Of a DNA stretch of 64,000 nucleotides, positions 46,290-61,289 are shown piece by piece. Below the pieces are notes generated by a model that was given only the letters and a program-made list of their open reading frames with translations, ran no database searches and was not told the origin of the DNA. Numbering within the stretch: position 1 is the stretch's first letter; the number at the start of each line of letters is the position of its first letter. Made by a program: the position numbers and the translations under genes. The DNA is from an uncultured Chloroflexia bacterium. Lineage in GTDB: Bacteria; Chloroflexota; Limnocylindria; Limnocylindrales; CSP1-4. The stretch covers positions 277,306 to 341,305 of the forward strand of contig CAWJBJ010000004.1 of NCBI GenBank assembly GCA_963841135.1. The letters are read 5' to 3'.

Positions 46290-47009
46290 TCAGTCGCGCA
46301 GGAGGTCCGCCACGTTCGCGAGCACCTCGTCCGCGAGGGGTGCCAGGTCGGACCGTGTGCCGACGCCCGTGAGCACCCCATAGCACTTGGCGACGCCGGC
46401 GGCGCGACCCATGCCCAGATCCGCCTCCGAGTCGCCGACCACGACGGTCCGTCCGGGCGCGGTCCCGAGCTGGCTGCACAGCTGGACGACCATGTCGCCC
46501 GCCGGCTTGACAGGCCAGCCGTCGTCCGCACAGGCGAGAGCATCCACGGACCCCGAGAGGCCAAGGGCCGCCAGGGTGCGCACCGTCGGCTCACGGTCGT
46601 CGGTCGTCGCGACCGCGATCAGGCGGCCAGTGGCATGTAACGCGTCGAACAGGGCGACCAGGTCCGTGACCGGCCGAGCCGTCGCCACCGGGTCGGGCGG
46701 GTGCCACGCCGCCTCGAGAGCCGGTCCGATCGCCGCGTCCGGGACCCCGGCGTCCCGCAGCACGCCCTCGGTGGCCTCCCGGATCCGGGCCATCGGCGTT
46801 GCGGCCAGACGCCCACCCCCGACGGCTCGCCGGGTCGCGTCGTCGTAGCCGAGCATGGCGTACAGCGGGAGCCGGATCGGCACGCCGGTCGCCGTCTCGA
46901 GGTCATCGGCCAACCGGACCGCCCAGCCGCTCCACATCGCGTGGAACTCGATGAGCGTGCCGTCCTTGTCGAAGATGACGAGATCGATGCCGTCGAGCGG
47001 ACGGATCAC
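46290..47009 (-). CDS. HAD family hydrolase
   Basis: IFDKDGTL, ATTD, KP, VGDS..D, GVLTG. Confidence 0.9.
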   Translation of the reverse strand: MIRPLDGIDLVIFDKDGTLIEFHAMWSGWAVRLADDLETATGVPIRLPLYAMLGYDDATRRAVGGGRLAATPMARIREATEGVLRDAGVPDAAIGPALEAAWHPPDPVATARPVTDLVALFDALHATGRLIAVATTDDREPTVRTLAALGLSGSVDALACADDGWPVKPAGDMVVQLCSQLGTAPGRTVVVGDSEADLGMGRAAGVAKCYGVLTGVGTRSDLAPLADEVLANVADLLRD

Positions 47010-48124
47010 ACCGCGGCGCCGGCCTCCGCTCCCGGGCGCGTCTCGGCCACGGTGCCGAGGACGAAGCACGCCTCGGCGGGGAAGGACACCGTCACGTCGG
47101 ACCCCACCGCCGGGAGAGCGAGGTGCGGCTCGTTGAACGTGTCCAGCGCGATCGACGTCGTCCCGTTCGATCCATCGGCGAGGCCCAGCCGGATCCGCAC
47201 GATCGATCCGAGGAAGTTGATGTCCTCGACCGTGCCCTGCAGCCGATTGTCGGTCTCGTCGCCTCGTCCCAGGTCGATGCCCTCGGGTCGGAGCGCGAGG
47301 GTCACGCGATCGCCCGAGCGCGCCTCGGTCACGGCCTTGGAGGTCCGGATCTCCTGGCCGGCGACCGACAGGCGGCCGGTGCTCGCGTCCACGACTCCCG
47401 CGTCGACGAGGTTGAGCGTGCCCACGAACGACGCCACGAACGACGTGCTCGGGAAGTTGTAGATCTCGAACGGCGTGCCGATCTGCTCGATCCGGCCCTC
47501 GCTCATCACGACGACGCGATCGGACAGCGAGAGCGCCTCCTCCTGGTCGTGCGTCACGTAGACCGTCGTGATGCCGAGCTGTCGCTGGATCGAGCGGATC
47601 TCCTTGCGCAGGGCGATGCGGATCTTGGCATCGAGCGCCGAGAGGGGTTCGTCGAGGAGCAGGACCTGCGGTTCGATGGCGAGGGCCCTTGCCAGAGCGA
47701 CGCGCTGCTGCTGGCCACCGGACAGCTGATATGGATAGCGGTTGCCACGCTCGGGAAGGTTGATGAGTTCGAGCAGTTCTCCGACCCGCTTGCTGATCTC
47801 GGCCTTGGGGCGCCCACGCACCTTCATGCCGAAGCCGATGTTGTCGGCCACGTTCAGATTTGGGAAGAGCGCGTACGACTGGAAGACCATCCCGACGTTG
47901 CGCTGGTTCGGCGGCTTCCGGGTGATCTCGACCCCGTCGACGGTGATCGAGCCTGCAGTGGGCTGTTCGAACCCCGCGATCATGCGCAACGTCGTCGTCT
48001 TGCCGCAGCCGGACGGACCGAGGAAGGACACGAATTCGCCGCGCTCGGCGGACAGATCGAAGGAATGGACCGCAGCGACATCGCCGAATCGCTTCTGCAC
48101 TCCCGACAGGACGAGGAACGTCAT
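47006..48124 (-). CDS. PotA-like ABC ATP-binding protein
   Basis: GPSGCGKTT, FQSYALFP, LSGGQQQR, LLDEP, C-terminal TOBE. Confidence 0.93.
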   Translation of the reverse strand: MTFLVLSGVQKRFGDVAAVHSFDLSAERGEFVSFLGPSGCGKTTTLRMIAGFEQPTAGSITVDGVEITRKPPNQRNVGMVFQSYALFPNLNVADNIGFGMKVRGRPKAEISKRVGELLELINLPERGNRYPYQLSGGQQQRVALARALAIEPQVLLLDEPLSALDAKIRIALRKEIRSIQRQLGITTVYVTHDQEEALSLSDRVVVMSEGRIEQIGTPFEIYNFPSTSFVASFVGTLNLVDAGVVDASTGRLSVAGQEIRTSKAVTEARSGDRVTLALRPEGIDLGRGDETDNRLQGTVEDINFLGSIVRIRLGLADGSNGTTSIALDTFNEPHLALPAVGSDVTVSFPAEACFVLGTVAETRPGAEAGAAV

Positions 48125-48144
48125 CGACTGCAGGCCTCCATGGT

Positions 48145-49038
48145 TCAGCGCGCCCCGCCGATCTGGATCCTGCTGCGCGACCCGCGACCGAGCATCGCGA
48201 TGGCGATCATCGCGAGCCAGGTCAGGCCGAAGCTGATCAGGGACACGGCGGCCGGCTCGTAGGTGCGGTTGGCGCCCAGATTCTGCAGGTATGGCCCGAA
48301 GGCGGGCCGGGCCAGGTACGAGGCCATCGTGAACTCCCCGATGACGATGGCCAGGCTGAGGAATGCGCCGGACAGCAGGGCGACGCGCAGGTTCGGCAGG
48401 ATGATCCGGACCAGGATCGTGAACCATCCGGCGCCGAGGCTCTGGGCGGCCTCGGTCAGCGTCCGGATGTCGATGGCTCGCAGGCCCGAGTCGACCGCTC
48501 GGTACATGTACGGCAGGGACAGGACGATGTAGGCGAAGACGAGCAGGGCGCTGCTGCCGATGTCCGTGTTCGTGAGCGGCAGCGGCGGCCGGCTGAAGGC
48601 CTTGATGAGGCCGAAGACGAGGACGACCGGCGGGATGACGAAGGGCAGGAGCGTGATGAACTCCACGACCGGCCGCAGTCGAGGCGCGCGGAGCCGGACC
48701 CAGTAGGCGGTCGGCACGATGAGCGCGATGCTGAGCACCACGGTGATCGCGCCGATGACGAACGAGTAGGCCAGGCTCGAGAAGAAGCGCGGGTCGGCGA
48801 AGGCGTTCGTGTATGCCGACAGGAACGGCTTCGAGCGCATCGAGACCTCGAACGTCGCGATCAGCGGGATCGTGAAGTAGAGGACCCCGATGATGAAGAC
48901 GATCCAGGCCCACGGCGCGCCCCACGACCGTCGCGGGCGCTCGGCCGTCGCGGCGGATGACCCGATGGTCTCGAGTGCCCCCTGGGCGCGGAGCCCGATG
49001 GCAGGTCCGGTGCTGCCGACGCCGCTGTTGCCCGTCAT
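48145..49038 (-). CDS. ABC permease (PotC-like)
   Basis: EAA loop EAAQSLGA; TM pattern. Confidence 0.9.
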   Translation of the reverse strand: MTGNSGVGSTGPAIGLRAQGALETIGSSAATAERPRRSWGAPWAWIVFIIGVLYFTIPLIATFEVSMRSKPFLSAYTNAFADPRFFSSLAYSFVIGAITVVLSIALIVPTAYWVRLRAPRLRPVVEFITLLPFVIPPVVLVFGLIKAFSRPPLPLTNTDIGSSALLVFAYIVLSLPYMYRAVDSGLRAIDIRTLTEAAQSLGAGWFTILVRIILPNLRVALLSGAFLSLAIVIGEFTMASYLARPAFGPYLQNLGANRTYEPAAVSLISFGLTWLAMIAIAMLGRGSRSRIQIGGAR

Positions 49039-49946
49039 CGCTGCCACCTCTCGGCTCGTCGCTGGAGCCAGGTGTAGCCGATGATCGAGACGCCCATGAC
49101 GCCCACCATCCCCATGGCCATCGCATAGCCGAGTCCGACGTTGTGCAGCACGTCGCCGCTGATCTGGTTCCCGATGGCGAGCGGCACCAGGTTGACCTGT
49201 CCGGCGGTCAGCTGGTACGCCGTGGCCTGCGCCCCGAAGGAGTTCCCGAAGAGCAGGATCATGCTGCCAAGCAGCGTCGGCGTCAGGATCGGCAGCGCCA
49301 CGCGCCGCCAGTACTGGAGGCCGGTCGCACCCATGTTCTCGGCGGCCTCACGCCACTCCGGCTTCATGCCGTCGATGGCGGGCGCCATGATGAGCACCAT
49401 CAGCGGGAACTGGAAGTACAGGTACACGATCTCGAGCCCCAGCTTCGAGAAGATCGTGAAGTCGCCGGCGTAGATGTCGATGCCGATGCCCCTGAGCAGG
49501 ATCGTCACAGCGCCCTGCTGGGCGAGGGTGTAGGTGAAGGCGAGGGCCAGCGGGATCCCGGCGAAGTTCGAGGCGACGCCCGAGAAGGTCATCAGGGCGC
49601 TTCGGAAGATCCGGGGCAGACGGCCGAGGATGACCGCCAGGGCAAGTAGGAAGCCGAGGACGCCGCCGACGATCGCGGTCACGAGGCTGACCTCGATGCT
49701 GTTCCGGAACGCGTTGGCGACCAGGGGGGTCGAGAGGGCCGCGTAGTTTTGGACGGTGGGAGCCCCGGTCTCGTTGTCGGCGATGCTGCCGAGGGCCAGG
49801 AACGCGAGCGGCAGCCCGAGGAACAGCGAGCTGAACACGAAGAACGGCACGAGCCCGGCCCACGAGAAGGACCAGGTCCGGGCGCGACGAGCGGGACGCA
49901 CCGGTGGGGCGTCCCGCTCGATCTTGACCGTGGCGGCGTCGCTCAC
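49035..49946 (-). CDS. ABC permease (PotB-like)
   Basis: EAAENMGA; SNFAGIPLA; YFQFPLM. Confidence 0.9.
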   Translation of the reverse strand: MSDAATVKIERDAPPVRPARRARTWSFSWAGLVPFFVFSSLFLGLPLAFLALGSIADNETGAPTVQNYAALSTPLVANAFRNSIEVSLVTAIVGGVLGFLLALAVILGRLPRIFRSALMTFSGVASNFAGIPLALAFTYTLAQQGAVTILLRGIGIDIYAGDFTIFSKLGLEIVYLYFQFPLMVLIMAPAIDGMKPEWREAAENMGATGLQYWRRVALPILTPTLLGSMILLFGNSFGAQATAYQLTAGQVNLVPLAIGNQISGDVLHNVGLGYAMAMGMVGVMGVSIIGYTWLQRRAERWQR

Positions 49947-49968
49947 GATCGCCGATCTGGGTCTGGCG

Positions 49969-51111
49969 TTACTTGACGTCGGCCCCGACGACCGCATCCC
50001 ACTGGCCGGTGATGAGGTCCTTGGCCTTGGTCGCCTGCTCCGAGGTCGGATAGACGGCCCCGGCGATATCGGGGAGCTTGGCGATGAGGTCGCCGGACAC
50101 GCTGCGTGCCTTGAGGTCGTCAAGACGGGTCGTGTGGCAGTAGCCACCCAGCCAGCCGGCCTGGCCCTCGTCGGAGTAGAGGTACTCCATCCAGAGCTTG
50201 GCCGCGTTCGGGTGCGGGGCGTAGGCGCTGATCGCCTGAGCGTAGACGCCCAGGAACCGTCCGGCCTTCGGGACGACGACGTCGATCTCCGGATTGCCGG
50301 CGGCCAGGTCCTTATGGCCAAGGGCGTTATATGCCCAGCGGATCGTGACCGGCGTGGCGCCCGTGTCGATCGTGCCCGGCTTGGCGATCGTCGGGACGAA
50401 GTTCCCGGCGTCGTTGAGCTTCTTGAAGAAGTCGAGGCCCGGCTGGGCGTCGTCGAGCGAGCCGCCATTGGCCAGCGCGGCCGCATAGACGGCGTTGTAG
50501 GCCTGGCTGGACGCACGCGGATCGCCCGCGAGCGCGACCTTGTTCTTGTACTCGGTCGTGAGGAGGTCGGCCCAGTCGGCCGGCGACTTCGCGGCTGCCG
50601 TGTTGGTCTCGAAGGTCAGGATGCTGTAGTAGTCGCCGTACCAATACCCATCCGGGTCCTTGAGGTCGGGATCGATCGTGTCCCACGTCGCGACCTTGTA
50701 CGGCTGGATGAGCTTCTCGGCCTTGGCCGGGTCGCCGAAGGTGATGCCGACGTCGATGACGTCCGGCGCCTGCGGGCCGGGGTTGTCCTTGTTGGCCTTG
50801 ATGGCCTCGATCTCATCACCCGACCCGGCATCCGGGTTGAGCTCGTTGACGGCGAGACCGTACTTCGTCTTGAAGCCCTCGATGATGGCGCCGTAGTTGC
50901 ACCAGTCGTGCGGCAGGGCGATCGTCGAGAGCGTTCCCTCCGCCTTGGCCGCGTCGATCAGGGCCTGGCTCGGTCCGCCAGCGCCGGCCCCGGCACTTGC
51001 GCCGGCCGACGGAGCGCCGCTCGCGCCGGTCCCGGATGAGCACGCCGCGAACGCAAGGATCGCGACCGCCGCGAGACCCGCGAGGCGGGCAAACAGATGG
51101 TTCTTGGACAA
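49969..51111 (-). CDS. ABC substrate-binding lipoprotein (polyamine/2-AEP/iron class)
   Basis: GGAGGA RBS before TTG; FAAC lipobox; AAKAEG, APDVIDVG, APHPNAAKLW. Confidence 0.9.
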   Translation of the reverse strand: MSKNHLFARLAGLAAVAILAFAACSSGTGASGAPSAGASAGAGAGGPSQALIDAAKAEGTLSTIALPHDWCNYGAIIEGFKTKYGLAVNELNPDAGSGDEIEAIKANKDNPGPQAPDVIDVGITFGDPAKAEKLIQPYKVATWDTIDPDLKDPDGYWYGDYYSILTFETNTAAAKSPADWADLLTTEYKNKVALAGDPRASSQAYNAVYAAALANGGSLDDAQPGLDFFKKLNDAGNFVPTIAKPGTIDTGATPVTIRWAYNALGHKDLAAGNPEIDVVVPKAGRFLGVYAQAISAYAPHPNAAKLWMEYLYSDEGQAGWLGGYCHTTRLDDLKARSVSGDLIAKLPDIAGAVYPTSEQATKAKDLITGQWDAVVGADVK

Positions 51112-51264
51112 GGTCCGTCCTCCGATCTTCATGTGTTGAGGTATCCAAAGGGTCCAGGGTCATTGCCGATCGAGCCCTCCTCCGCTCGGCTCGGCGTCCG
51201 TGCGATCACCCCCTCATGGGCGGAACGCAGCGTCCGCCGGGGCATGATCTTCGTGCTGGTGCAT

Positions 51265-51314
51265 TTGACGTCGGGCATCAGCGCGCGTCAAGACCATGTG
51301 AGGGTTTTGTTAAC
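51265..51314. promoter_or_regulatory. Candidate regulatory sites in the divergent region
   Basis: TTGACG...CGTCAA inverted pair (51265-51291) and GTGAG-N6-GTTAAC (51298-51314), resembling a GlnR-type box. Confidence 0.35.
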
Positions 51315-51495
51315 GCCTCATGGTCCGCAAGTGTACGTTTCGTGCTTGCCTCGGATCGAGCCGGTCGGTGGCCGTATCGCAGGGCGAAGCGCGCGGGGAA
51401 CGAGGGCGTCCGCGGGGTGGGCCACCGACCTATACTCCCTTCCGATCGGCGTGCCGGCTCGCTCGGCCAGGCCGTTTCCGCGGGAGGATCGGTCG

Positions 51496-52323
51496 ATGGC
51501 CGTTGGCCCTGGCGAAACCGGCGAGGCGCGGACCCTGCAGGATCCGCTGGCGGAGTCGCTCCGCATCGTCGACCTCGCGGAGCAGCGCGGCCTCCTGGTG
51601 CGGCTCATGGGCGGCATGGCCATCCGCGCCCATGCCCCGGACTGGCCGGCCCGGACCCGACGCGTCGAGGTCGATCTCGACTTCGCGACCCGATCGCGCG
51701 ACCGCGGGGCCTTCTACGAGCTCCTGGCCAAGGAGGGCTACACGCCCGACAAGCGCCACAACGCCCTCTTCGGCGGCAAGCAGGCGTACTTCGTGGACGT
51801 GCCCCGTAACCGGCCGGTCGACGTGCTCGTGGATAGCCTCGAGATGTGTCACCGCTTCGAGTTCGGCGACCGCCTGGCGAAGTCCAGCCCGACGCTGCCG
51901 CTGGCGGAGCTGATCCTCTCGAAGCTCCAGGTCGTGAAGATCAACCGCAAGGACGTCCTGGACGCGCTGGTCCTCCTCTCGGAACACCCCCTGGGCCCGG
52001 ACGACGGTGCGCCGGACGCGCGTCACGGGCTCGGGACGATCAACGTGCCGCGGATCCTGTCCTTCACGTCGAACGACTGGGGGTGGTGGCGGACGGTCAC
52101 CGGCAACCTCGACACCCTGGACCAGTACCTCGCGACCGAGTTGAAGCCCGATGACCTCGACCTGAATAACGGGCGGGCGATCCTGTTCGATCCGGCGTCG
52201 CAGGTGGCCGAGCTGCGCAAGGCCATCGACGATGCGCCGAAATCCACGAAGTGGAAGCTGCGCGCCAGGGTCGGGGAGCGGCAGACCTGGTACCAGGAGC
52301 CCGAAGAGATGGGGCACGGCTGA
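51496..52323 (+). CDS. Pol-beta-superfamily nucleotidyltransferase-like protein
   Basis: RLMGGMAI...DLDF, VDVLVD, LSKLQ...KD..D; GGGAGG RBS; TATACT at 51431. Confidence 0.78.
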   Translation: MAVGPGETGEARTLQDPLAESLRIVDLAEQRGLLVRLMGGMAIRAHAPDWPARTRRVEVDLDFATRSRDRGAFYELLAKEGYTPDKRHNALFGGKQAYFVDVPRNRPVDVLVDSLEMCHRFEFGDRLAKSSPTLPLAELILSKLQVVKINRKDVLDALVLLSEHPLGPDDGAPDARHGLGTINVPRILSFTSNDWGWWRTVTGNLDTLDQYLATELKPDDLDLNNGRAILFDPASQVAELRKAIDDAPKSTKWKLRARVGERQTWYQEPEEMGHG

Positions 52324-53261
52324 TGCGGATCTTCTTCGCGACCGACATCCACGGTTCCGACATCTGCTGGCGCAAGTTCCTCAATGCCGGGAAGTTCCAC
52401 AAGGCGGATGTGCTGATCATGGGCGGCGACATGACCGGCAAGGCGATGGTGCCGATCGTCGCGAACGGCTCGAACTGGGACCTCGAGCTCCAGGGTCAGC
52501 AGCAGACGCTGCGGACCGAGGAGGAGCTCCAGGCGATGGAGAAGCGGATCAGCGACCGCGGCTACTACCCGGTGCGGCTGACCCGCGACGAGGTCGACGC
52601 CTGGACGGCCGACGCCACGCTCGTCGACACGCGGTTCAAGGCCGAGATGCTCGGCAACGTCGAGCGCTGGATGGCCCTCGGCGACGAGCGGCTGGCCGGG
52701 ACCGGGATCCGCTGCGTCGTGTCGCCGGCCAACGACGACATCTTCGAGATCGATCCGATCATCGACCGGGCCGAGCACATCGAGCTCGGCGAGGCCAACA
52801 CGATCGAGCTCGACGGGTTCACGCTCGTCTCGACCGGTTGGGCGAACCCGACGCCCTGGAACACCTTCCGGGAACTCCCGGAGCCCGAGCTGCGCGAGCG
52901 GATCGACGGCCTCGTCGCCCAGGTCGCGGACCCGAAGCGGGCGATCTTCAACTTCCACGCCCCGCCGTACGGCTCGAACCTGGACAACGCCCCGAAGATC
53001 GATTCCGAGATGCGCTACGTGTCGGCCGGCCAGGCCCTGATCCCGGTGGGATCGACCGCGGTCCGGGAGTCGATCCTCGCGTACGGCCCGCCGCTGTCCC
53101 TGCATGGCCACATCCACGAGGGCAAGGGCGCCGTCAAGCTCGGGCCCACGCTCGCGGTGAACCCCGGAAGCTCGTACGAGGATGGCGTCCTCCAGGCGGC
53201 GATCGTCGATCTCGACACAAAGAAGGGAACGGTGAAGCGCTATCTGCTGATCAACGGATAA
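52323..53261 (+). CDS. Calcineurin-like metallophosphoesterase (Icc-related)
   Basis: TDIHG, GGD, ANDD, FHAPP, HGHIHE, NPGS; TGATG overlap with the NTase. Confidence 0.9.
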   Translation: MRIFFATDIHGSDICWRKFLNAGKFHKADVLIMGGDMTGKAMVPIVANGSNWDLELQGQQQTLRTEEELQAMEKRISDRGYYPVRLTRDEVDAWTADATLVDTRFKAEMLGNVERWMALGDERLAGTGIRCVVSPANDDIFEIDPIIDRAEHIELGEANTIELDGFTLVSTGWANPTPWNTFRELPEPELRERIDGLVAQVADPKRAIFNFHAPPYGSNLDNAPKIDSEMRYVSAGQALIPVGSTAVRESILAYGPPLSLHGHIHEGKGAVKLGPTLAVNPGSSYEDGVLQAAIVDLDTKKGTVKRYLLING

Positions 53262-53286
53262 GCCCGCGTCTCGGACGCCCATCCGT

Positions 53287-53400
53287 GCGTTGTCCGCTGC
53301 GCCCGCTCGCTCACGCAGGAACCATCGGGCCGATGGCTAGCGCGGCGTCACCTCGGACCTCCGGGAGTGGTTCGCTCGCTCTCGTGCTCACGGCCGCCTT
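53287..53400. repeat. Structured intergenic repeat element, copy B
   Basis: Same conserved arms as 15865-15948 with a longer central insert (GAACCA...TGGTTC stem). Confidence 0.7.
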
Positions 53401-53446
53401 CGGCTGAACGCCGATCCATCGGGCTTGGGGGAGTAGGAGGGAAAAA

Positions 53447-55237
53447 ATGGCATCTGGCACTGCTCCGTCGCTGTTCCTCAGGAATGCGACGGGTCTGGTC
53501 AAGGGGTGGTCCGGCTTCGACGCGTTCACGTACTCGTTCATGTCGGTCAACCTGGTCACGCTGGGCATGTTCTACAGCCTGGCGATCTTCGCCTACGTCC
53601 CCGACGGATCGGCGATCGCTTCGATCCTGGTCACGGCCGTCGGCATGACCTTCGTGGTCATCGCCTACGCGAGCCTGATCGCGGTCATGCCGCGCGCCGG
53701 GGGCGACTACGTCTGGCAGACGCGAGTGCTCGATGGCATCCCCGGCGCCGTCACCGGCGGGGCCTTCGGCGCGATCGCGGTCTTCCTCGTGGGCACGGCG
53801 ACCGGCCTCGACTCGATCGTGACGCTCGTCGGATCGGTCCTCGGCGCCCTGGCCGGTGCGTCCATCGGCCTGAAGCGCGGTGGCGTCGGCTTCGTGCTGT
53901 CGGCCACCGGGTGGTGGTTCATCCTCGCCCTCTGGGCACCCATCTACGGCTTCATCCTGAAGATCGAGTTCGTCCAGCCGCTTGCGGCCCTGCTCGGCTG
54001 GACCGCCGGCGTCGACTTCTTCGGCACCTCAGACGGCACGTTCGCGGTCTCGATCGCCACGATCGTCATCACGTCCGCACTGGTCGCGCTGGGGATGGCC
54101 GGCTACGCGCGCATCCAGCGCTGGAGCCTGTGGATCGGGCTGGCGGCGCTCCTCGTGATGTTCGTCCTGATGCTCATCACGACCGTCGACACCTTCAAGC
54201 CTGCGTACGACCGCGCCGCCGAGAACATGTTCGGCGTCACGAACGCCTACCAGGCCACGATCGACCAGGCCGCGTCCGATCCGGCATCGGGCTATACGGG
54301 CTCCGAGCTCGACCCGGTCTCCTTCGGCCCCGGCACCATGCTGCTGGTCCCGTTCATGCTGTTCTTCCTGCTCTACCCCAACTGGGGCGCGACGCTGTAC
54401 GGCGAGGTCCGCGGCTCCGGTGACTTCCGAAAGGTGCTCCGGGGCATGCTCGGCGGCCTGTGGGTCACGGTCGCGCTCGCGATCGTGTTCCTGCTCCTGG
54501 CCGCTCGCTCGTTCGGCTGGACGTTCTTCAACGCCTCCAACGTCACGTACGTCAACTACGCCTACGCGTACTCGACGACACCGCCGCCGATGCCGATCTG
54601 GGGCTACCCGCCGATGCTCGCCGCGTTCGTCATCGACAGCAACATCGTCCAGGCCCTCATCGTGCTCGCCTTCGGCTTCTGGTGGATCGGGTGGACGGGA
54701 ACGCTGTTCCTGTCATCGACCCGGATGATCTTCGCCGCGGCGTTCGACCGGATGCTCCCCGAGTGGGCCGGTCGCGTGTCCGAAGGCCGGGGCGTGCCGT
54801 GGGCGGCGCTCACGCTGATCATGGTCCCGTCGATCGTGCTCAGCTGGCTCTACGCCTACAACAGCGACTTCTATGGGCTGACGCTCGACGCCACGCTCGT
54901 CATCGCGGTCACGTTCTTCGGGACGGCGATCGCCGCGACGATCCTGCCCTGGTGGAAGAAGGACCTCTACGAGGCCTCGCCCATCGCCAGCCACAGGCTC
55001 CTCGGCCTGCCGATCATCGCGGTCGCCGGCGCGATCTCGACCATCTTCCTGGGCTGGGTCATCTTCACGTGGCTGTCGAATGCGCTGTACGGGATCGGCA
55101 TCGGCAACGCCAACTCGATCCTGTTCCTCGCCATCCTCTATGGCGCCGCGGCCGTGCTGTACGTCGCGGCTCGCCTGTTCCGGCGCTCGCAGGGCATCGA
55201 TCTCGATGCCATCCATGCGGAGATCCCGGCCGAGTAG
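53447..55237 (+). CDS. APC family amino acid/amine permease
   Basis: FLRNATGLV, MPRAGGDYVW, GEVR, R.IFA.AFDR.LP; AGGAGG RBS. Confidence 0.88.
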   Translation: MASGTAPSLFLRNATGLVKGWSGFDAFTYSFMSVNLVTLGMFYSLAIFAYVPDGSAIASILVTAVGMTFVVIAYASLIAVMPRAGGDYVWQTRVLDGIPGAVTGGAFGAIAVFLVGTATGLDSIVTLVGSVLGALAGASIGLKRGGVGFVLSATGWWFILALWAPIYGFILKIEFVQPLAALLGWTAGVDFFGTSDGTFAVSIATIVITSALVALGMAGYARIQRWSLWIGLAALLVMFVLMLITTVDTFKPAYDRAAENMFGVTNAYQATIDQAASDPASGYTGSELDPVSFGPGTMLLVPFMLFFLLYPNWGATLYGEVRGSGDFRKVLRGMLGGLWVTVALAIVFLLLAARSFGWTFFNASNVTYVNYAYAYSTTPPPMPIWGYPPMLAAFVIDSNIVQALIVLAFGFWWIGWTGTLFLSSTRMIFAAAFDRMLPEWAGRVSEGRGVPWAALTLIMVPSIVLSWLYAYNSDFYGLTLDATLVIAVTFFGTAIAATILPWWKKDLYEASPIASHRLLGLPIIAVAGAISTIFLGWVIFTWLSNALYGIGIGNANSILFLAILYGAAAVLYVAARLFRRSQGIDLDAIHAEIPAE

Positions 55238-55264
55238 CCCGGGCTTCGCGATCGCGGACACGAC

Positions 55265-55293
55265 GAAGACGCCTCGGTCCCCGAGGCGTCTTC
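55265..55293. terminator. Hairpin between convergent genes (likely bidirectional terminator)
   Basis: GAAGACGCCTCGG-TCC-CCGAGGCGTCTTC. Confidence 0.7.
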
Positions 55294-55297
55294 CGAT

Positions 55298-56773
55298 TCA
55301 GCCGCCGAACCAGCCCGACGGTCCGGGTGACGTGTTCTGCCAGATGTGCTTGGCCTCGCGGTACTCGTCGAGCCCGCTCGGACCGAGCTCACGCCCGATG
55401 CCCGACTGCTTGAACCCGCCCCATTCCGCTTGCGGGACGTACGCGTTGTAGTCGTTGATCCACACGGTCCCGTGGCGGAGTCGGGCGGCCACCCGCTGCG
55501 CACGGCCCGCGTCGGCCGTCCAGACGGCACCGGCCAGGCCGTACGTGGTGTCGTTGCCGAGCTCGATCGCCTCGTCCTCGGTCGAGAACCGCTCGATCGT
55601 CAGGACCGGGCCGAAGACCTCCTCGCGGATGATCCGCATGTCGCGGCGGACGTCGGCGAAGACCGTCGGTCGGTAGAAGAAGCCGGCTTGGAGCTCCGGC
55701 TCATCGGGGCGACGGCCGCCCGCGACGAGGCGGGCGCCCTCCTCGACCGCCGACGCGACATAACCCTCCACCTTGTCGCGATGGGCCGCGCTGATGAGCG
55801 CGCCTGTCTCGGTCGCATCGTCGGTTCCGTGGCCGAGGCGGATCCGGTCGGCGCGCCGGCCGACCTCCTCGACGAATCGCTCGTAGATCTCGTCCTCGAC
55901 GATCGCCCGGCAGCCGGCCGAGCAGACCTGCCCCGAGTGGGCGAAGGCCGCCGTCAGGGCGTTGTCCACCGCGGTCTCGAAGTCGGCGTCGGCGAACACG
56001 ATGTTCGGGCTCTTGCCGCCGAGTTCCAGCGCGACCCTCTTGACGTTGACCGCGGCGCCCCTCATCAGCGCGCGACCCGCCTCCAAGCCGCCGGTCAGCG
56101 ACACGAGGTCGACGTCCGGGCTGTCGGCCAGGGCCTGTCCGACGCGCGTGCCCGGGCCGAGGACCAGGTTGACGACGCCCGCCGGGACCCCGGCCTCCTC
56201 GAAGAGGCGGGTCAGGTGGATCGTCGACAACGGCGTCACCTGGGCCGGCTTCATGACCGCGGTGTTCCCGGCCGCGAGGGCCGGCGCGATCTTCCAGCTC
56301 ATCTGGAGGAGCGGGTAGTTCCACGGCCCGATGAGCCCGCACACCCCGACCGGCTCGTACACGATCCGGCTGAGGACGTTGGGGTTGCTCGCATCGACGA
56401 TCCGGCCTGCCTCCTTGTCGGCGAGGTCCGCGTAGTAGCGGAAGACCCGGGCCACGTCCGCCATGTCCCAGCGGCTCTCGCGCATCGCCTTTCCGGTGTT
56501 CAGGGTCTCCTCGCGCGCCATCGACTCCTGGTCCCGGTCGATGAAGCCGGCGACCTCCTGGAGCAGCGCGGCGCGCTCGCCGGTCGGACGCCGCGACCAG
56601 TCGCCGGCATCGAAGGCTCGTCGCGCGGCGGCGATGGCCGCCTGCACCTGGTCATCCGTCGCGACGTCGACCTCGGTGACGACGGCGCCGTCGGACGGGT
56701 TGATCACCGGACTGCAGGCGCCATCGCCCGATGCAATCCACTGACCGTCGATGAAGAGGCTGGGCACGGTCAC
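55298..56773 (-). CDS. Aldehyde dehydrogenase (betaine/aminoaldehyde type)
   Basis: PWNYP, LELGGKSP, GQVCSAG, EEVFGP, WGGFKQSG.GRELG. Confidence 0.93.
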   Translation of the reverse strand: MTVPSLFIDGQWIASGDGACSPVINPSDGAVVTEVDVATDDQVQAAIAAARRAFDAGDWSRRPTGERAALLQEVAGFIDRDQESMAREETLNTGKAMRESRWDMADVARVFRYYADLADKEAGRIVDASNPNVLSRIVYEPVGVCGLIGPWNYPLLQMSWKIAPALAAGNTAVMKPAQVTPLSTIHLTRLFEEAGVPAGVVNLVLGPGTRVGQALADSPDVDLVSLTGGLEAGRALMRGAAVNVKRVALELGGKSPNIVFADADFETAVDNALTAAFAHSGQVCSAGCRAIVEDEIYERFVEEVGRRADRIRLGHGTDDATETGALISAAHRDKVEGYVASAVEEGARLVAGGRRPDEPELQAGFFYRPTVFADVRRDMRIIREEVFGPVLTIERFSTEDEAIELGNDTTYGLAGAVWTADAGRAQRVAARLRHGTVWINDYNAYVPQAEWGGFKQSGIGRELGPSGLDEYREAKHIWQNTSPGPSGWFGG

Positions 56774-56930: not shown

Positions 56931-59448
56931 ATGAGCGCGTTTCCCGATCGGGCGGGTGTGGTCGTCATCGGCGCGGGGATCGTGGGCAACAGCATGGCCT
57001 ACCACCTGGCCCGGCTCGGCTGGCGCGACATCGTCCTGGTGGAGAAGGGGACGCTCCCGAACCCAGGCGGCTCGACCGGTCACGCGTCGAACTTCATCTT
57101 CACGACGGACCACTCCAAGGAGATGACCGCGCTGACGCTCGACAGCGTCAAGCAGTACCAGGAGCTGGGCGTCTTCACGCAGAGCGGCGGGATCGAGGTC
57201 GCCCGGACGCCCGAGCGGATGGAGGAGCTGAAGCGCCGACTCGCGGCCTCGAAGGCATGGGGGATCGAGTCCGAGCTCATCGATCCGGCGCGGGTCAGGG
57301 CCCTGGTCCCCTACATAGAGACATCGATCATCCTGGGCGGCTTCCACACGCCGGGGGTCGGGGTCGTGGACTCGCTGCGCGCCGGCACGATCATGCGCGA
57401 GCGCGCGACGGAGATGGGTGCGCTGACGATCGCGGCGGGCGCCGAGGTGACCGGGATCGACGTGGTCGACGGGCACGTTCGCGGCGTCCGGACGGACAAG
57501 GGCGACATCGCCGCCGACACGGTCCTTATCTGCTGCGGGGTCTGGAGCCCGCGGATCGCGCGCATGGCCGGCGCGTCCATCCCGCTCACGCCGGCCATCC
57601 ACCAGATGATCAGCGTCGGTCCCGTGCCGCTCTTTGCCGACACGGTCGGCGAGATCCGGTACCCGATCGTGCGCGACATGGACACGAACATGTACGAGCG
57701 TCAGCACGGCGGCGACCTCGAGGTCGGATCGTATGCGCACCGGCCGATCCTCATGGACCCCGACGACATCCCCTCGATCGCCGCGTCGAAGCTCTCGCCG
57801 ACCGAGCTGCCGTTCACCCAGGACGACTTCGAGCCGCAGCTCGAGCAGGCCCTCGAGCTCGTGCCGGACATCCTGGGCGACGAGCGCGTCGGCATCCGCC
57901 ACTCGATCAACGGGCTGCTCTCACTGACGCCTGACGGGATGCCGATCCTCGGCGAGACGCCCGAGGTCAAGGGCCTCTGGTCGGCCGCGGCCATCTGGAT
58001 CAAGGAGGCGCCAGGGATCGCGCGGACCGTCGCCGAGTGGATGACTCACGGCACGCCGGAGATCGATCCGCACTCGTCCGACATCGCACGCTTCTACGAC
58101 CATCACCGGACCGCGACGCACATCGCGGCGCGCAGCGCCGAGGGCTTCAACAAGACCTACGGCATCGTCCACCCGATGGAGCAGTGGGCGACGAATCGGG
58201 ACGTCCGGCTGAGCCCGGTCAACGCACGGCAGCAGCGGGCTGGGCGCCGTGTTCTTCGAGGCCGCTGGCTGGGAGCGGCCGTTCTGGTACGAGGCCAACG
58301 AGCGCCTCCTGGCCGAGTACGGGGACCGGGTCATGCCCCGCGAAGCCGAGTGGGAATCGCGATGGTGGTCGCCGATCGTCAACGCCGAGCATCTCGCGAT
58401 GCGCGAGCGCGTGGGCATGGTGGACCTCGCCGCGTTCGCGATCTTCGATGTGAGCGGCCCGGGCGCGATGGCCTATCTCCAGGGGCTCGCGGTCAACCAG
58501 GTCGATGTGGCGGTCGGGCGGGTCGTGTACACGCCGCTCCTCAACGAGGCCGGCGGCATCGTCGCGGACCTCACGATCATGCGCCTGCGCCACGACCTGT
58601 TCCGGGTCGTCACGGGCGGCGGCATGGGGATGCGCGACAAGAAGTGGTTCGTGGACCACCTGCCGGCCGACGGGTCTGCGCAGCTGTTCGATGCGACGTC
58701 GGCGCTGTACACGCTCGGCGTGTGGGGGCCACGGGCCCGGGACCTCCTCAGCGCCGCGACCGAGGACGACGTCTCGAACGAGGCCTTCCCGTTCGGGACC
58801 TGGCGGACGATCGATGTCGACGGCGTGCGGACGCTCGCCTCGCGGATCTCGTACGTGGGCGAGCTCGGCTGGGAGATCTACGCGCCGATGGAGCAGGGCG
58901 CCCGCCTGTGGGACCGGTTGTGGGATGCGGGCCAGGCGCCCGGTGTCGTCGCGGTCGGGATCGGCGTCTACGGCACGACCGGCCGGCTGGAGAAGGGCTA
59001 CCGCGCGCACGGCGCCGAGCTGGAGCTCGACTTCGACCTCGTCGAGGCGGGCATGGCCCGTCCAAAGGTCAAGGACGCCGACTTCGTCGGGAAGGCCGCG
59101 TATCTCGAGCAGCGGTCCCGGCCGCCCGCCGCGATCCTCTGCACGCTCACCGTCGACGATCCGACGTCGTCATCGGGCGTGGCGCGGTACATGCTCGGCA
59201 AGGAGCCGGTGATGACGCCGGACGGGCAGCCGCTCGTGGACGCCAAGGGTCGCCGCTCGTACGTGACGAGCGCCGGGTCTGGGCCCTCGGTCGGCCGGCA
59301 CATCCTGATGTCGTACCTGCCGCCCGAGTCGGCCATGGTCGGCACGAAGCTCGCGGTCGAGTACTTCGGCGAGCAGTACCCGGTGACCGTCGCCGTCGCG
59401 GGGAGCACCCCGCTGTTCGATCCGGACAACGACCGGATCCGCGGTTGA
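56931..59448 (+). CDS. GcvT-family FAD oxidoreductase (dimethylglycine oxidase/dehydrogenase-like; frameshift near 58238)
   Basis: VIGAGIVG, GSTGHAS, TPDG.P.LG, GWERP.WY, R.SYVGELGWE, RLEKGYR. Confidence 0.88.
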
Positions 59449-59461
59449 GGCGGCGTCCGTC

Positions 59462-60227
59462 GTGAACATCCTCGTCTGCGTCAAGCGCGTGCCGGCGACC
59501 GGGGGCCGGATGGTCCTGACCGCCGACGAGCGCGACATCGACACGCGGTTCCTCGGGTTCGTCGTCAGCCCGCACGAGGAGTGCGCGGTGGAGGAGTCGG
59601 TGCGCCTTGTCGAGGCAAACGGCGGGACGACGACGGTCCTGACTCTCGGGCCGGACGCGGCGGCGGACCAGCTGCGCGACGCGATGGCGATCGGCGTCGA
59701 CCGGGCGATCCTGCTCGAGACCGACGGCAGCGATTGGGACCCGATGGCCACGTCCGCGTCGCTGACCGCTGCGATCCGGGCGCTCGAGGACGCCGACGGG
59801 CCATTCGACCTGATCCTGTTCGGCAACGAATCCGCGGACTCCGGCGGGCTTCCAGGTGGGGATCCGGGTCGCGTACGAGCTCGATCGGCCGTGCGTCACC
59901 GGCGTGAAGTCCCTTGAGGTGGGCGACGGGACGGTCGCGGCGCGGCGCGAGGCGCCCGGCGGCTGGGAGGTGTTCGAGGTCCCGCTCCCGGCCATCGTCG
60001 CGGTCCGCGAGGGGATCAACCTGCCGCGCTATCCGTCGGTGCCGGGTCGGCTCCGGGCGAAGAAGAAGGAGATCGAGCGGTCGACGCCCGAGCGACGCCC
60101 GGGCGGTCCCGAGCTGATCCGCCTCGTGCTTCCCGCCGAGCAGGTCCGGACCGCGGAGATCCTCGGGACGGGACCCGACGCGGCGCCCCGGGTCGTCGAG
60201 GTCATCCGACAGCTGGGGCTCCTGTGA
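59462..60227 (+). CDS. etfB: Electron transfer flavoprotein beta subunit (frameshift near 59848)
   Basis: ILVCVKRVP, AVEE, G.DRA, FG.ESAD, N.PRYP. Confidence 0.87.
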
Positions 60228-61200
60228 CGCATCCTCGCGTTCGTCGAGCACGTGGAGGGTCGGGTCGACCGGCTCAGCCTCGAGATGCTCGCGCTCGGCC
60301 GACGACTGGCCGAGGCGACGGGTGCGACCCTCGAGGCGGCACTGAGCGGGGCCGGCGCCGAGCCCGCGGCGGCCGAGCTCGGCCGGCACGGCGTCACGAC
60401 GGCGCACCTCATCGCGCATCCAGGGCTCGACGCGTACGCGCCGGCCGCGCTGGCCGCGAGCCTGGAGCAGATCGCCTCGACGACCTCGGCGACGGCCGTG
60501 CTCGCTCCCGGCAGCGAACGCGGCACGGAGGTCCTGGCCCACCTCGGGGCGCGGACCGGCCAGCCGATGGCGGCCAACGTGACCGAGGTCGTCCCCGGCG
60601 AGCGCTGGCGCGTCACGCGGCAACGGTGGGCCGGCAGCCTCCTCGAGGAGGCGTGGCTCGACGGATCCCCGCACCTGCTGACGGTCGCCGCGCATGCGGT
60701 CGCCCCGGGTGAGCCTGACATGACCGCCGCACCGGCGGGCATCCGCGCGATGACGCCGACGCTCTCGGACCGGGACCTGCGGGTCCGCGTCACGGCACAC
60801 GTCCCATCCGCCAGCGACCGGATCTCGCTCACCGATGCCCGTGTCGTGGTCGGCGGTGGCCGGGGCATCGGCAGCGCCGAGGGCTTCGCGATGCTCGAGG
60901 ACGCTCGCGGACCTGCTCGGCGGCGCGGTCGGCGGCTCGCGCGTCGTGACGAGTGCGGGCTGGCGACCCCACGCGGACCAGATCGGTCAGACCGGCGTCC
61001 GGATCGCGCCGGAGCTGTACATCGCCTGCGGGATCAGCGGGGCGATCCAGCACATCGTCGGCTGCAAGGCCGCGAAACGGATCCTGGCCATCAACGTCGA
61101 CGCCGAGGCGCCGATCATGAGCCACGCCTCGTACGCGGTCATCGGCGACCTCCACGCGATCGTCCCGGCCATCACCGAGGAGATCCGTCGGGTCCGTTGA
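60224..61200 (+). CDS. etfA: Electron transfer flavoprotein alpha subunit (frameshifts near 60230 and 60902)
   Basis: VVVGGGRG, GGSR, QIGQTG, PELYIACGISGAIQH..G, AIN.D.EAPI. Confidence 0.87.
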
Positions 61201-61289
61201 CGGGCGTGCCGCTTCGGTTTCTTGCCCGGATGTGAGAAGGTGCGCGGAGCGGCCCCCATCCCGGGCGGTCGCATGATGCAGGAGAGCCC

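Follow-up and report, generated by a model that had tools for sequence, protein, structure and literature searches.

Three adjacent genes of an uncultured Chloroflexia bacterium, encoding a Pol-beta-fold nucleotidyltransferase (N), a binuclear metallophosphoesterase (M) and a divergent APC-superfamily permease (T), constitute a conserved module. M and T diversify jointly by module type, and N groups by phylum. In two large soil phyla the three families are nearly always co-inherited, and our best reading, held with low confidence, is that N and M may be an add/remove nucleotidyl pair serving the permease itself.

Gene layout and neighbours

The window, i.e. the whole stretch of 64,000 nucleotides that was analysed, carries the three genes on the plus strand at positions 51496-55237, with all catalytic motifs intact. 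The features discussed here are as follows.

51496..52323, plus strand: N, Pol-beta-fold nucleotidyltransferase, 275 aa (translation, fold, invariant residues)
52323..53261, plus strand: M, binuclear metallophosphoesterase, phosphodiesterase-like, 312 aa (Pfam, motifs, model)
53262..53446, plus strand: M-T spacer, 185 nt (sequence)
53447..55237, plus strand: T, divergent APC-superfamily permease, 596 aa (Pfam, motifs)
46290..51132, minus strand: divergent ABC importer (SBP, two BPD_transp_1 permeases, ABC_tran/TOBE_2 ATPase), then HAD hydrolase (Pfam)
49969-51132, minus strand: SBP of the ABC importer (Pfam)
46290-47069, minus strand: HAD hydrolase (Pfam)
55298..56773, minus strand: aldehyde dehydrogenase (ALDH), best model betaine-aldehyde dehydrogenase (BADH) (Aldedh E 5.9e-170; TIGR01804 619 bits against a cut-off of 668.6)
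56931..59448, plus strand: DAO/FAO_M/GcvT N-demethylase, dimethylglycine-oxidase-like, in two frames split near 58174-58244 (Pfam)
59462-59917 and 59856-60227, plus strand: ETF beta, in two frames (Pfam)
60252-61235, plus strand: ETF alpha (Pfam)

The ATG of N lies 7 nt after GGGAGGA. The TGATG junction of N and M, as originally noted, is borne out as a one-base overlap, in which the A of the N stop codon TGA (52321-52323) is the first base of the M start codon (52323-52325). Neither an Rfam match nor a site resembling a promoter or terminator is found in the M-T spacer; in relatives of the same gene order the corresponding spacers are mostly 29-150 nt, compared with 185 nt here.

The original prediction described the divergent ABC importer as Pot-like. 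The divergent importer is indeed present, but its top models are of the 2-aminoethylphosphonate type (PhnT2/PhnS) rather than Pot, with a best NCBIfam score of 429 bits for PhnT2 (cut-off 457.7) and weak PhnS-like and PhnX-like matches, all below the cut-offs. The ALDH, GcvT-family oxidoreductase and ETF that had been named as neighbours are all found, with the DAO-GcvT and ETF beta genes each split over two frames. Aligned to an intact 841-aa homologue of the DAO-GcvT enzyme, frame 3 extends to 58244 and frame 1 begins at 58174. A choline/glycine-betaine catabolic cluster would combine BADH, a choline dehydrogenase and a dimethylglycine demethylase. The candidate parts of one in the window are this DAO-GcvT enzyme and the BADH-like ALDH, which scores just below the cut-off; no GMC oxidoreductase gene is present within the 64 kb.

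Catalytic and structural features of the proteins

The GG.A...DxD motif ascribed to N is confirmed as G39 G40 x A42 ... D60 x D62, and the G39-G40 turn, D60-x-D62 and the third carboxylate D109 together correspond to the sequence definition of the Pol-beta superfamily. The length of N agrees with that of its homologues, most of which have 275-278 aa at 100% coverage. Across 60 diverse homologues the invariant residues are G39, D60, D62, D109, H119, K143, Q145, D156, W195, G196, K249, W253, R256, G260 and W265, and the helical half of the protein holds invariant Asp and Trp residues. The Pol-beta fold of the catalytic core, on which the original prediction also depended, is recovered in the predicted structure (pLDDT 92.2). 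Its fold matches include ANT(2'')-Ia (Z 11.3, 154 residues aligned, rmsd 3.6), LnuA (Z 9.5) and the toxins MenT1 (Z 11.3), MenT3/TglT and MenT4 (Z 8.2-11.3 for the three). Profile comparison with solved structures likewise gives ANT(2'')-Ia (E 0.015) and LnuA (E 0.1). CdnE is matched by Foldseek with E 1.2e-3 but a TM of 0.27, and Rel and SpoT reach Z 4.4 and 3.6.

Judged by its sequence, N belongs to an unnamed family near Pfam PF14907 (NTP_transf_5, an uncharacterised nucleotidyltransferase), the only Pfam family that it matches. The match spans residues 18-109 with 18.2 bits (E 0.002), below the gathering cut-off of 31.2 bits, and N is thus left outside PF14907 itself. Although 36 of 60 relatives match at E<=1e-3, only L047 (33.1 bits) exceeds the cut-off among the relatives that were Pfam-scanned at their loci; 1 of the 60 family members matches Aminoglyc_resit. 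The sole paper found to name PF14907 (PMC8942020) just lists it next to a PEP mutase. With a median pI of 5.65 and a net charge of -6, the N family is acidic; at 50% identity it forms about 1,950 clusters in public data, and many related metagenome sequences of N share 83-95% identity.

M exceeds the cut-off of Pfam Metallophos (PF00149) with 30.7 against 21.5 bits (E 5.4e-7), in accordance with its proposed calcineurin-like nature, and carries the metal-binding motifs DxH, GD, GN[HD][DE], H and GHxH, with motif III reading GNDD instead of GNHD/E. In 43 homologues H10, D36, N137, D138, D139, H212, H261, H263 and H265 are invariant and D8 is found in at least 90%. A cap insert of about 90 residues lies between motifs II and III (residues about 40-130). 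The top fold matches of the predicted structure (pLDDT 95.4) are aq_1956 (2yvt, Z 24.3), TT1561 (1uf3, Z 23.8) and MPPED2 (3rl3, Z 20.7), and the phosphodiesterases MPPED2, Mre11, Rv0805, Lmo2642 and GpdQ stand at Z 17-21 (GpdQ 17.2). The 50 matches listed are diesterases, nucleases and nucleotidases, with no PPP protein phosphatase among them, an absence from the list that is not an exclusion. The model of M thus appears to resemble phosphodiesterases more closely than protein phosphatases, as would fit an eraser of a nucleotidyl diester.

The APC permease expected downstream is T, which scores 37.9 bits against AA_permease_2 (PF13520; cut-off 27) and whose nearest solved relative by profile is GkApcT (5oqt, E 2.9e-19). 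The APC motifs R..GL at the start of TM1, PR.GGDY, GE and R...D..P are retained, and a crude hydropathy scan puts the number of hydrophobic segments at about 14. Family members are 540-610 aa long, and 54 of 59 carry a C-terminal tail motif, ...GID..x[Y/H]xEIPxE, that is missing from one ordinary APC control. At the Y/H position the 59 members have Y in 28, H in 25 and N/F/Q in 6. The subtype in the window also contains a Gly-rich hydrophobic insert of about 48 residues. Neither Pfam nor the alignment reveals a recognisable nucleotide-binding domain in T.

Co-occurrence, module types and separate histories

In a sample of 401 Chloroflexota genomes, the N, M and T families are present in 85, 82 and 83 genomes, respectively; 312 genomes have none of them. 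The original prediction was staked on co-occurrence elsewhere, and all three families are found in 78 of the 89 genomes that have any. N is present in 80 of the 82 M-positive genomes. The N-positive genomes that are devoid of M or T (n = 7) consist of 70 to 710 contigs; for five of these, completeness is 58-91% and the contig count 350-720. Each family has exactly one member in the genome of the window itself, and the trio is also present in Actinomycetota. Among 100 loci, N+M+T were found in 68, N+M in 13 and N+T in 7, within the stretch retrieved per locus. Co-occurrence of the three families, both across genomes and at individual loci, places the N-M-T arrangement far from chance.

The gene order of the trio differs between loci, with M adjoining T in most arrangements, and N and M abut or overlap by 0-3 nt in many N-M-T loci. 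One genome contains five N and five M copies, arranged in pairs. The evidence for N-M fusions is weak: a few single-record proteins are long enough, one of them (P0397) carries PF00149, and one locus (L078) has a single fused open frame, although the apparent fusions may be frameshift errors of assembly.

The type-1 module, i.e. the N-M-T order seen in the window, is accompanied by BADH-like ALDH, DAO-GcvT demethylase and GMC choline-dehydrogenase-like genes (25, 18 and 10 of 42 such loci), and a counterpart of the window's SBP stands beside 20 of the 42. Other forms adjoin arginase (agmatinase/arginase-family), CN-hydrolase, deacetylase or BtpA/DeoR genes. Since the catabolic neighbours vary while the trio is constant, we argue that N and M work for the permease and not for a single pathway.

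Between the type-1 modules of the two phyla, mean identity is 57% for M and 53% for T, compared with 43% and 39% (M) and 21% and 22% (T) between module types within a phylum; overall, T identity between types is about 21-27%. For N the corresponding values are 41% between the phyla and 59% and 51% between types. The divergences of M and T show the tightest correlation among the three (Pearson 0.92). In AU tests, for which the groups were chosen after a first tree had been inspected, a single clade of type-1 N sequences is rejected (p 2.4e-7; 8.5e-7 under a mixture model), and a single Actinomycetota clade is rejected for M (p 1.1e-4) and T (p 4e-32). Since N groups by phylum while M and T follow module type, N seems to be interchangeable between cargo types.

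Possible functions and relation to known systems

We tentatively propose that N, M and T would form one self-contained uptake module, in which T would import a nitrogenous compound; for the window's form, the neighbours suggest choline or a methylated amino alcohol related to it. N and M would be an opposing pair: most likely, N would add a nucleotidyl group from an NTP and M would hydrolyse the resulting phosphodiester. The pair would presumably act not on the variable cargo but on a conserved cytoplasmic part of the permease or of its cognate phosphodiesterase, and would thereby switch transport on and off. Such logic would be GlnD-like, combining a nucleotidyltransferase with a metal-dependent hydrolase, applied directly to a secondary transporter. 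Co-inheritance, linkage, the diesterase-like character of M and the failure of N to track cargo type all speak for a pair that serves the permease, the few apparent N-M fusions do so weakly, and the incongruence of the trees favours a target common to all module types. That an APC transporter has its own nucleotidylyl writer and eraser, so that nitrogen-rich uptake is switched post-translationally without a PII-type intermediary, strikes us as somewhat doubtful.

Several observations run against a permease-directed pair. T has no strictly conserved modifiable residue beyond the motifs common to all APC permeases; the nearest relatives of N by profile and fold are small-molecule O-nucleotidyltransferases; the invariant Trp and Asp residues of N are as expected for a cationic-amine pocket; and action of M on the cargo would account just as well for the joint diversification of M and T.

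The main rival, itself rather unlikely in our estimation, is that N nucleotidylates a hydroxyl group of an imported amino alcohol such as choline and M cuts the diester, so that the cargo is trapped, activated or detoxified. The nearest solved relatives of N, ANT(2'')-Ia and LnuA, favour such a small-molecule acceptor, and the single Aminoglyc_resit match, the acidity of the family, which is shared with cationic-substrate enzymes, and the invariant Asp and Trp of the helical half point the same way. Joint diversification of M and T is also expected if both recognise cargo, and the type-1 neighbours are of the choline type. N would, however, need to recognise the cargo, yet it shows no diversification with module type, and the agmatinase/arginase-family, CN-hydrolase and deacetylase contexts imply cargo that lacks a hydroxyl. 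Adding and then removing the group would be futile cycling unless M cleaves the diester on its other side, in which case the pair would do a kinase's work at high cost; a choline/ethanolamine kinase is also encoded at one locus (L046).

It is improbable, though conceivable, that the cargo is a phosphoester or phosphodiester amine (e.g. phosphocholine or glycerophosphocholine) from which M frees the amine on entry, with N as a generic regulator or in an unrelated side role. The tight pairing and adjacency of M and T, the likeness of M to the glycerophosphodiesterase GpdQ and other diesterases, and the phosphonate/phosphate-type ABC parts and HAD hydrolase next door would agree with this, and by our own reasoning zwitterionic phospho-amines are akin to the amino acids that APC permeases usually carry. 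Why N is nearly obligate would nevertheless be unexplained, our literature searches found no APC transporter for such cargo, and the contexts of the other module types do not suggest phosphoesters.

We give a small chance to a permease gated by a small nucleotide that N makes and M degrades, in the manner of RelA/SpoT or cyclase/phosphodiesterase pairs. The layout is that of a synthase plus a hydrolase, the structural neighbours of M include the cyclic-nucleotide phosphodiesterases Rv0805, Lmo2642 and MPPED2, N weakly matches the folds of CdnE and the Rel/SpoT synthetase domains, and a four-CBS protein adjoins N at one locus. These CD-NTase/Rel matches, however, fall well short (Foldseek TM about 0.27; Z 3.6-4.4) of those to ANT and MenT (Z about 11), T lacks a recognisable nucleotide-binding domain, and a diffusible signal needs no N and M for each permease, yet one genome has five N/M pairs. 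It is very improbable that N and M are an anti-phage pair, or a MenT/AbiEii-like toxin and its enzymatic antitoxin, that merely stands beside the permease. MenT proteins are among the best fold matches of N, but the family is acidic, contrary to expectation for RNA-binding toxins, PADLOC matches neither N nor T and M only generically, the neighbours of N are a phosphoesterase and a permease, and N strictly accompanies one clade of permeases and catabolic genes in two phyla and is closely conserved among many related metagenome sequences.

Literature searches found no description of the trio's function and, as the original prediction had stated, no characterised system of this three-gene layout. 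Solving the N family would allow thousands of 'hypothetical' genes to be annotated, would show how abundant soil bacteria that are uncultured (Limnocylindria, Actinomycetota) acquire or regulate choline-like and other nitrogen compounds, and could uncover either a novel regulation of secondary transport or a novel nucleotidyl-dependent reaction of amine metabolism. If the permease does have its own writer and eraser, this would be a principle of regulation as yet undescribed among transporter families, with a wide distribution in uncultured soil bacteria.

With the antibiotic O-nucleotidyltransferases ANT(2'')-Ia and LnuA (PDB 4xje, 4wh5), N shares a minimal NTase core followed by a helical domain, at 13-15% identity over 140-154 aligned residues. 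Unlike them, N has about 100 extra C-terminal residues with the invariant motif PKS..WKLR..GER..WY..PEE, and is linked to a permease and a phosphodiesterase, not to resistance genes. M has the binuclear-metal motifs of aq_1956, TT1561 and MPPED2 (18-22% identity) and is set apart from them by its cap insert; no function appears in the PDB titles of aq_1956 and TT1561, so that these give no hint of the substrate. T shares the usual APC motifs with GkApcT (5oqt/6f34), a proton-coupled APC-superfamily amino-acid transporter, from which it differs in its length, its family-specific tail and the Gly-rich insert of the window's subtype.

GlnD is the PII uridylyltransferase/uridylyl-removing enzyme, in which a Pol-beta nucleotidyltransferase and a metal-dependent hydrolase serve nitrogen metabolism by attaching and detaching a nucleotidyl group, and GlnE acts with glutamine synthetase. 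The likeness to the trio is in logic only: GlnD and GlnE have an HD or a second NTase removing domain, whereas the putative removing enzyme here is a calcineurin-like metallophosphoesterase, and Pfam detects neither an HD domain nor the ACT domains of GlnD in N or M, so that the trio falls outside the GlnD/GlnE switches. General Pfam annotation of a set of loci brought no PII-like third protein to notice, and the transporter is an APC permease instead of an Amt channel. AmtB and GlnK are a transporter-linked, tightly co-inherited pair and GlnD is encoded elsewhere, an arrangement that resembles the joint diversification of M and T beside the separate history of N.

Gene arrangement and genomic setting

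The genes for the Pol-beta-fold nucleotidyltransferase (N), the calcineurin-like metallophosphoesterase (M) and the divergent APC permease (T) lie on one strand, and the features discussed here are the following.

46290-51132, minus strand: ABC importer, then HAD hydrolase, upstream of N and divergent from it
51496-52323, plus strand: N, 275 aa by translation
52323-53261, plus strand: M, 312 aa by translation; Pfam Metallophos above cut-off
53262-53446, plus strand: spacer between M and T, 185 nt
53447-55237, plus strand: T, 596 aa by translation; Pfam AA_permease_2 above cut-off
56931-59448, plus strand: DAO/FAO_M/GcvT demethylase, split over two frames with the change near 58174-58244
59462-60227, plus strand: ETF beta, in two overlapping frames, 59462-59917 and 59856-60227

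The start of N is preceded by a GGGAGGA box, and its size agrees with the 275-278 aa of most homologues; the G+C content of the window is about 67-75%. The coupling of N to M through TGATG, claimed in the original prediction, is borne out by the gene boundaries, the stop codon of N and the start codon of M having one base in common. In relatives that share this gene order, the spacer between M and T is mostly 29-150 nt long. A permissive Rfam search of 50900-55500, which includes this spacer, gave nothing beyond an sRNA match at chance level (E 0.55), and a promoter and terminator scan of the same region gave 0 sites. A 266-nt contig from the 'ice metagenome' metatranscriptome library corresponds to 53447-53704, the start of the T gene, with 2 differences, and other pieces from the same RNA library are less than 90% alike to the trio region. 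The contig shows that a very close relative of the window organism is present in that library; it is no proof of transcription.

All the neighbours claimed around the trio, i.e. a divergent ABC importer, an aldehyde dehydrogenase (ALDH), a GcvT-family enzyme and ETF, are found in the window: a BADH-like (betaine-aldehyde dehydrogenase-like) ALDH, the DAO/FAO_M/GcvT demethylase, ETF beta and ETF alpha follow downstream of the trio. The importer had been called Pot-like; it is an importer, but its best scores are with 2-aminoethylphosphonate transporter models and not with the Pot type (429 bits against PhnT2, cut-off 457.7). Its binding protein is PhnS-like and the HAD hydrolase weakly PhnX-like. 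Since importer and hydrolase score toward Phn models, the cluster may act on a phosphonate or phospho-amine and not on a polyamine.

The alignment of an intact 841-aa homologue with the demethylase gene runs in frame 3 as far as 58244 and resumes at 58174 in frame 1; the frame change is either an assembly indel or a mark of a pseudogene. The genome (3.46 Mb) is only 79% 'complete' despite its 5 contigs, which would fit an assembly with many indel errors. No gene of the choline-dehydrogenase-like GMC family lies within the 64-kb window.

Predicted folds and conserved residues

With 60 diverse homologues as input, AlphaFold models N confidently (pLDDT 92.2). The predicted Pol-beta fold is confirmed by a fold search independent of Foldseek, in which ANT(2'')-Ia and MenT1 (both Z 11.3) come first, followed by a fungal NTase-like protein (Z 10.8), LnuA (Z 9.5), TglT/MenT3 (Z 9.2) and JHP933 (Z 8.8); Foldseek points to the same superfamily. 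Among PDB sequences, the best matches to the N-family profile are ANT(2'')-Ia (E 0.015) and LnuA (E 0.1), and a search of the PDB sequences with N alone gave nothing meaningful. The Pfam match to PF14907 (NTP_transf_5) is sub-threshold only, and an NCBIfam search with N gave no match. One paper mentions PF14907 only in passing, as a neighbour of a PEP mutase (PMC8942020). In the full-text literature, mostly outside subscription journals, no paper was found on NTP_transf_5 or TT1561.

Since G39, D60, D62 and D109 are invariant in the 60 diverse homologues, N should be catalytically active. H119, K143, Q145, D156, W195, G196, K249, W253, R256, G260 and W265 are also invariant, marking out a predicted helical half that is specific to the N family. 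Among the few longer homologues on record, one carries a MarR-type HTH in its N-terminal extension and the others have no domain there; these extensions are possibly gene-calling artefacts.

The model of M (pLDDT 95.4) matches aq_1956 (Z 24.3), TT1561 (Z 23.8) and MPPED2 (Z 20.7) most closely, and then Mre11, Rv0805, Lmo2642 and GpdQ (Z 17-20). A sequence search with M returned close relatives only, 81-90% identical. Every metal-binding motif is kept in 43 M homologues, motif III being GNDD. Both N and M look enzymatically active; a profile-profile comparison finds the two unrelated, as expected.

T possesses the general APC motifs, with GkApcT as its nearest solved relative. A C-terminal tail, ...GID..x[Y/H]xEIPx[E/D], is conserved in 54 of 59 T-family members and is absent from one ordinary APC permease of a related genome, which served as a single control. 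The [Y/H] of this tail was considered as the modified residue and dropped, with N, F or Q standing there in 6 of the 59 members. The C-termini of N (52288-52320, WY.[E.]PEE) and T (55213-55234, [Y/H].EIP.E) are similarly acidic; the likeness may be due to chance, or may reflect a common docking or recognition element. T also bears an insert of about 48 residues (96-143; 53732-53875), hydrophobic and rich in Gly, after its PR.GGDY motif, with a weak glycine-zipper Pfam match and two extra hydrophobic segments, seen only in Limnocylindrales type-1 permeases among the alignment rows displayed.

Distribution, module forms and separate histories

The N family comprises 1,952 clusters at E ≤ 1e-3 among 1.8 billion cluster representatives. 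We searched one sample of 401 Chloroflexota genomes separately for N (single protein, E ≤ 1e-3), M (profile, E ≤ 1e-20) and T (profile, E ≤ 1e-30), finding them in 85, 82 and 83 genomes, respectively. The three genes do co-occur elsewhere: 78 of the 401 genomes carry the full set, 89 carry one or more of the genes and 312 carry no member of the trio. Seven N-positive genomes lack M or T; they consist of 70 to 710 contigs each, and five of them are 58-91% complete in 350-720 contigs. M and/or T without N occurs in 4 of the 401. The window's genome holds a single copy of each gene. The sample includes three genomes of its genus, and none of them has N, M or T, so that the module counts as accessory even between closely related genomes. 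A 2.3-Mb genome of the same class (G058) carries five N and five M copies arranged in pairs, the N copies being 34% to 59% identical to that of the window; N is thus not simply one enzyme per genome.

Gene neighbourhoods agree with the predicted linkage. M or T lies at most 1.5 kb from N in 19 of the 30 best N matches. We further compiled 100 longer loci, 20 hand-picked across families among the N places in the genome sample and 80 the best of 583 confirmed matches to a 12-row N alignment, with genes called by a simple custom script. The complete trio is present in 68 of these 100, N with M in 13, N with T in 7 and N alone in 8, counts that include two loci duplicating others and several that end at contig edges. 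Record titles name Actinomycetota in 26 of the 80 best loci, including Solirubrobacterales and Streptosporangiaceae; the N family extends beyond Chloroflexota. Possible N-M fusions are few: some single-record proteins are long enough, one with PF00149, and one locus (L078) has N and M in one fused open frame. Since the N and M genes overlap out of frame, such fusions could be frameshift errors. Two other proteins combine an N-family domain with a GMC 'choline dehydrogenase' (P0399, 868 aa, Streptosporangiaceae) or with an AMP-binding enzyme (P0396, 799 aa, in a cluster of 13 member sequences); they may be genuine fusions or may result from merged gene calls. In line with the original prediction, which knew of no characterised system with this layout, the N-M-T trio is not described in the full-text literature covered, mostly outside subscription journals, and a description elsewhere is possible.

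The module has two broad forms. In type 1, the window's own, N, M and T follow in this order on one strand, N and M often abutting or overlapping. We assigned 42 loci to type 1 by hand and compared them with 56 others by tblastn with single exemplars (E ≤ 1e-15, query coverage of 50% or more), which undercounts: ALDH is a neighbour in 25 type-1 loci and 2 others, DAO-GcvT in 18 and 2, a PhnS-like binding protein in 20 and 5, and GMC in 10 and 0. The other loci have arginase-family enzymes, CN-hydrolases, deacetylase-like proteins, amidases and M24 peptidases as neighbours; in some of them BtpA, DeoR regulators, an FGGY kinase, a class-II aldolase and xylose-isomerase-like barrels take their place. 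The adjoining pathway thus varies between loci, whereas the trio stays constant. In the window's case, the neighbouring genes suggest choline, or a methylated amino alcohol related to it, as a candidate cargo. In a locus of Chloroflexota family f10 (L046:3642-8870), N has as immediate neighbours a choline/ethanolamine kinase, a DAO-GcvT demethylase and a four-CBS-domain protein, and its other flank holds a DeoR regulator, M, T and another DAO-GcvT.

N and the M-T pair appear to have separate histories. Across 59 loci with one complete trio each, pairwise identities correlate at 0.92 for M-T, 0.67 for N-M and 0.51 for N-T; within type 1 all three co-vary (0.79-0.90). The T tree unites the type-1 permeases of the two phyla in a single clade (34 rows, support 99), and another module type likewise has members in both (support 100). 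The N tree gathers all 16 Actinomycetota sequences in one clade regardless of module type (support 99). Mean identities follow the same division, with type 1 across phyla compared with different types within each phylum: 41% versus 59% and 51% for N, 57% versus 43% and 39% for M, and 53% versus 21% and 22% for T. AU tests reject trees that unite the type-1 sequences of N in one clade (p 2.4e-7 under LG+G4; p 8.5e-7 under a mixture model with three long rows omitted), and likewise trees that unite the Actinomycetota sequences of M (p 1.1e-4) or of T (p 4e-32), the groups having been chosen after the FastTree result was seen and the rows being related genomes rather than independent samples. We take these patterns to mean that M is matched to its own permease, through contact or common cargo, whereas an exchange of N between module types took place on one occasion or more. 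Such exchange suggests that the job of N is independent of cargo type.

Proposed function and comparison with known systems

We tentatively favour a scheme in which N would form a nucleotidyl phosphodiester and M would hydrolyse such bonds, the two acting as a writer/eraser pair in service of T, because both enzymes go with one permease clade whatever the pathway beside them. Two findings count against it. Outside the generic APC motifs, T has no strictly conserved hydroxyl-bearing residue, and the closest solved relatives of N have small molecules as substrates. For the same reasons, the main rival is that N nucleotidylates the imported amino alcohol, an account that we regard as possible if somewhat doubtful. 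It is unlikely that the module instead centres on M as a cargo phosphoesterase matched to T, since N would then be left unexplained.

Two further readings fit poorly. That N and M make and degrade a signalling nucleotide seems very improbable, as the fold matches of N to signal synthases are weak. We give hardly any credence to a toxin or defence role, since PADLOC matches neither N nor T to a defence model and gives M one generic metallophosphoesterase match, the N family is acidic and the metabolic linkage is strict.

The favoured writer/eraser scheme has a counterpart in GlnD, which joins a nucleotidyltransferase with a metal-dependent hydrolase in nitrogen control; the same logic is proposed here for N and M. 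The division between the M-T pair and N likewise resembles the tight pairing of AmtB with GlnK, beside which GlnD is inherited separately.
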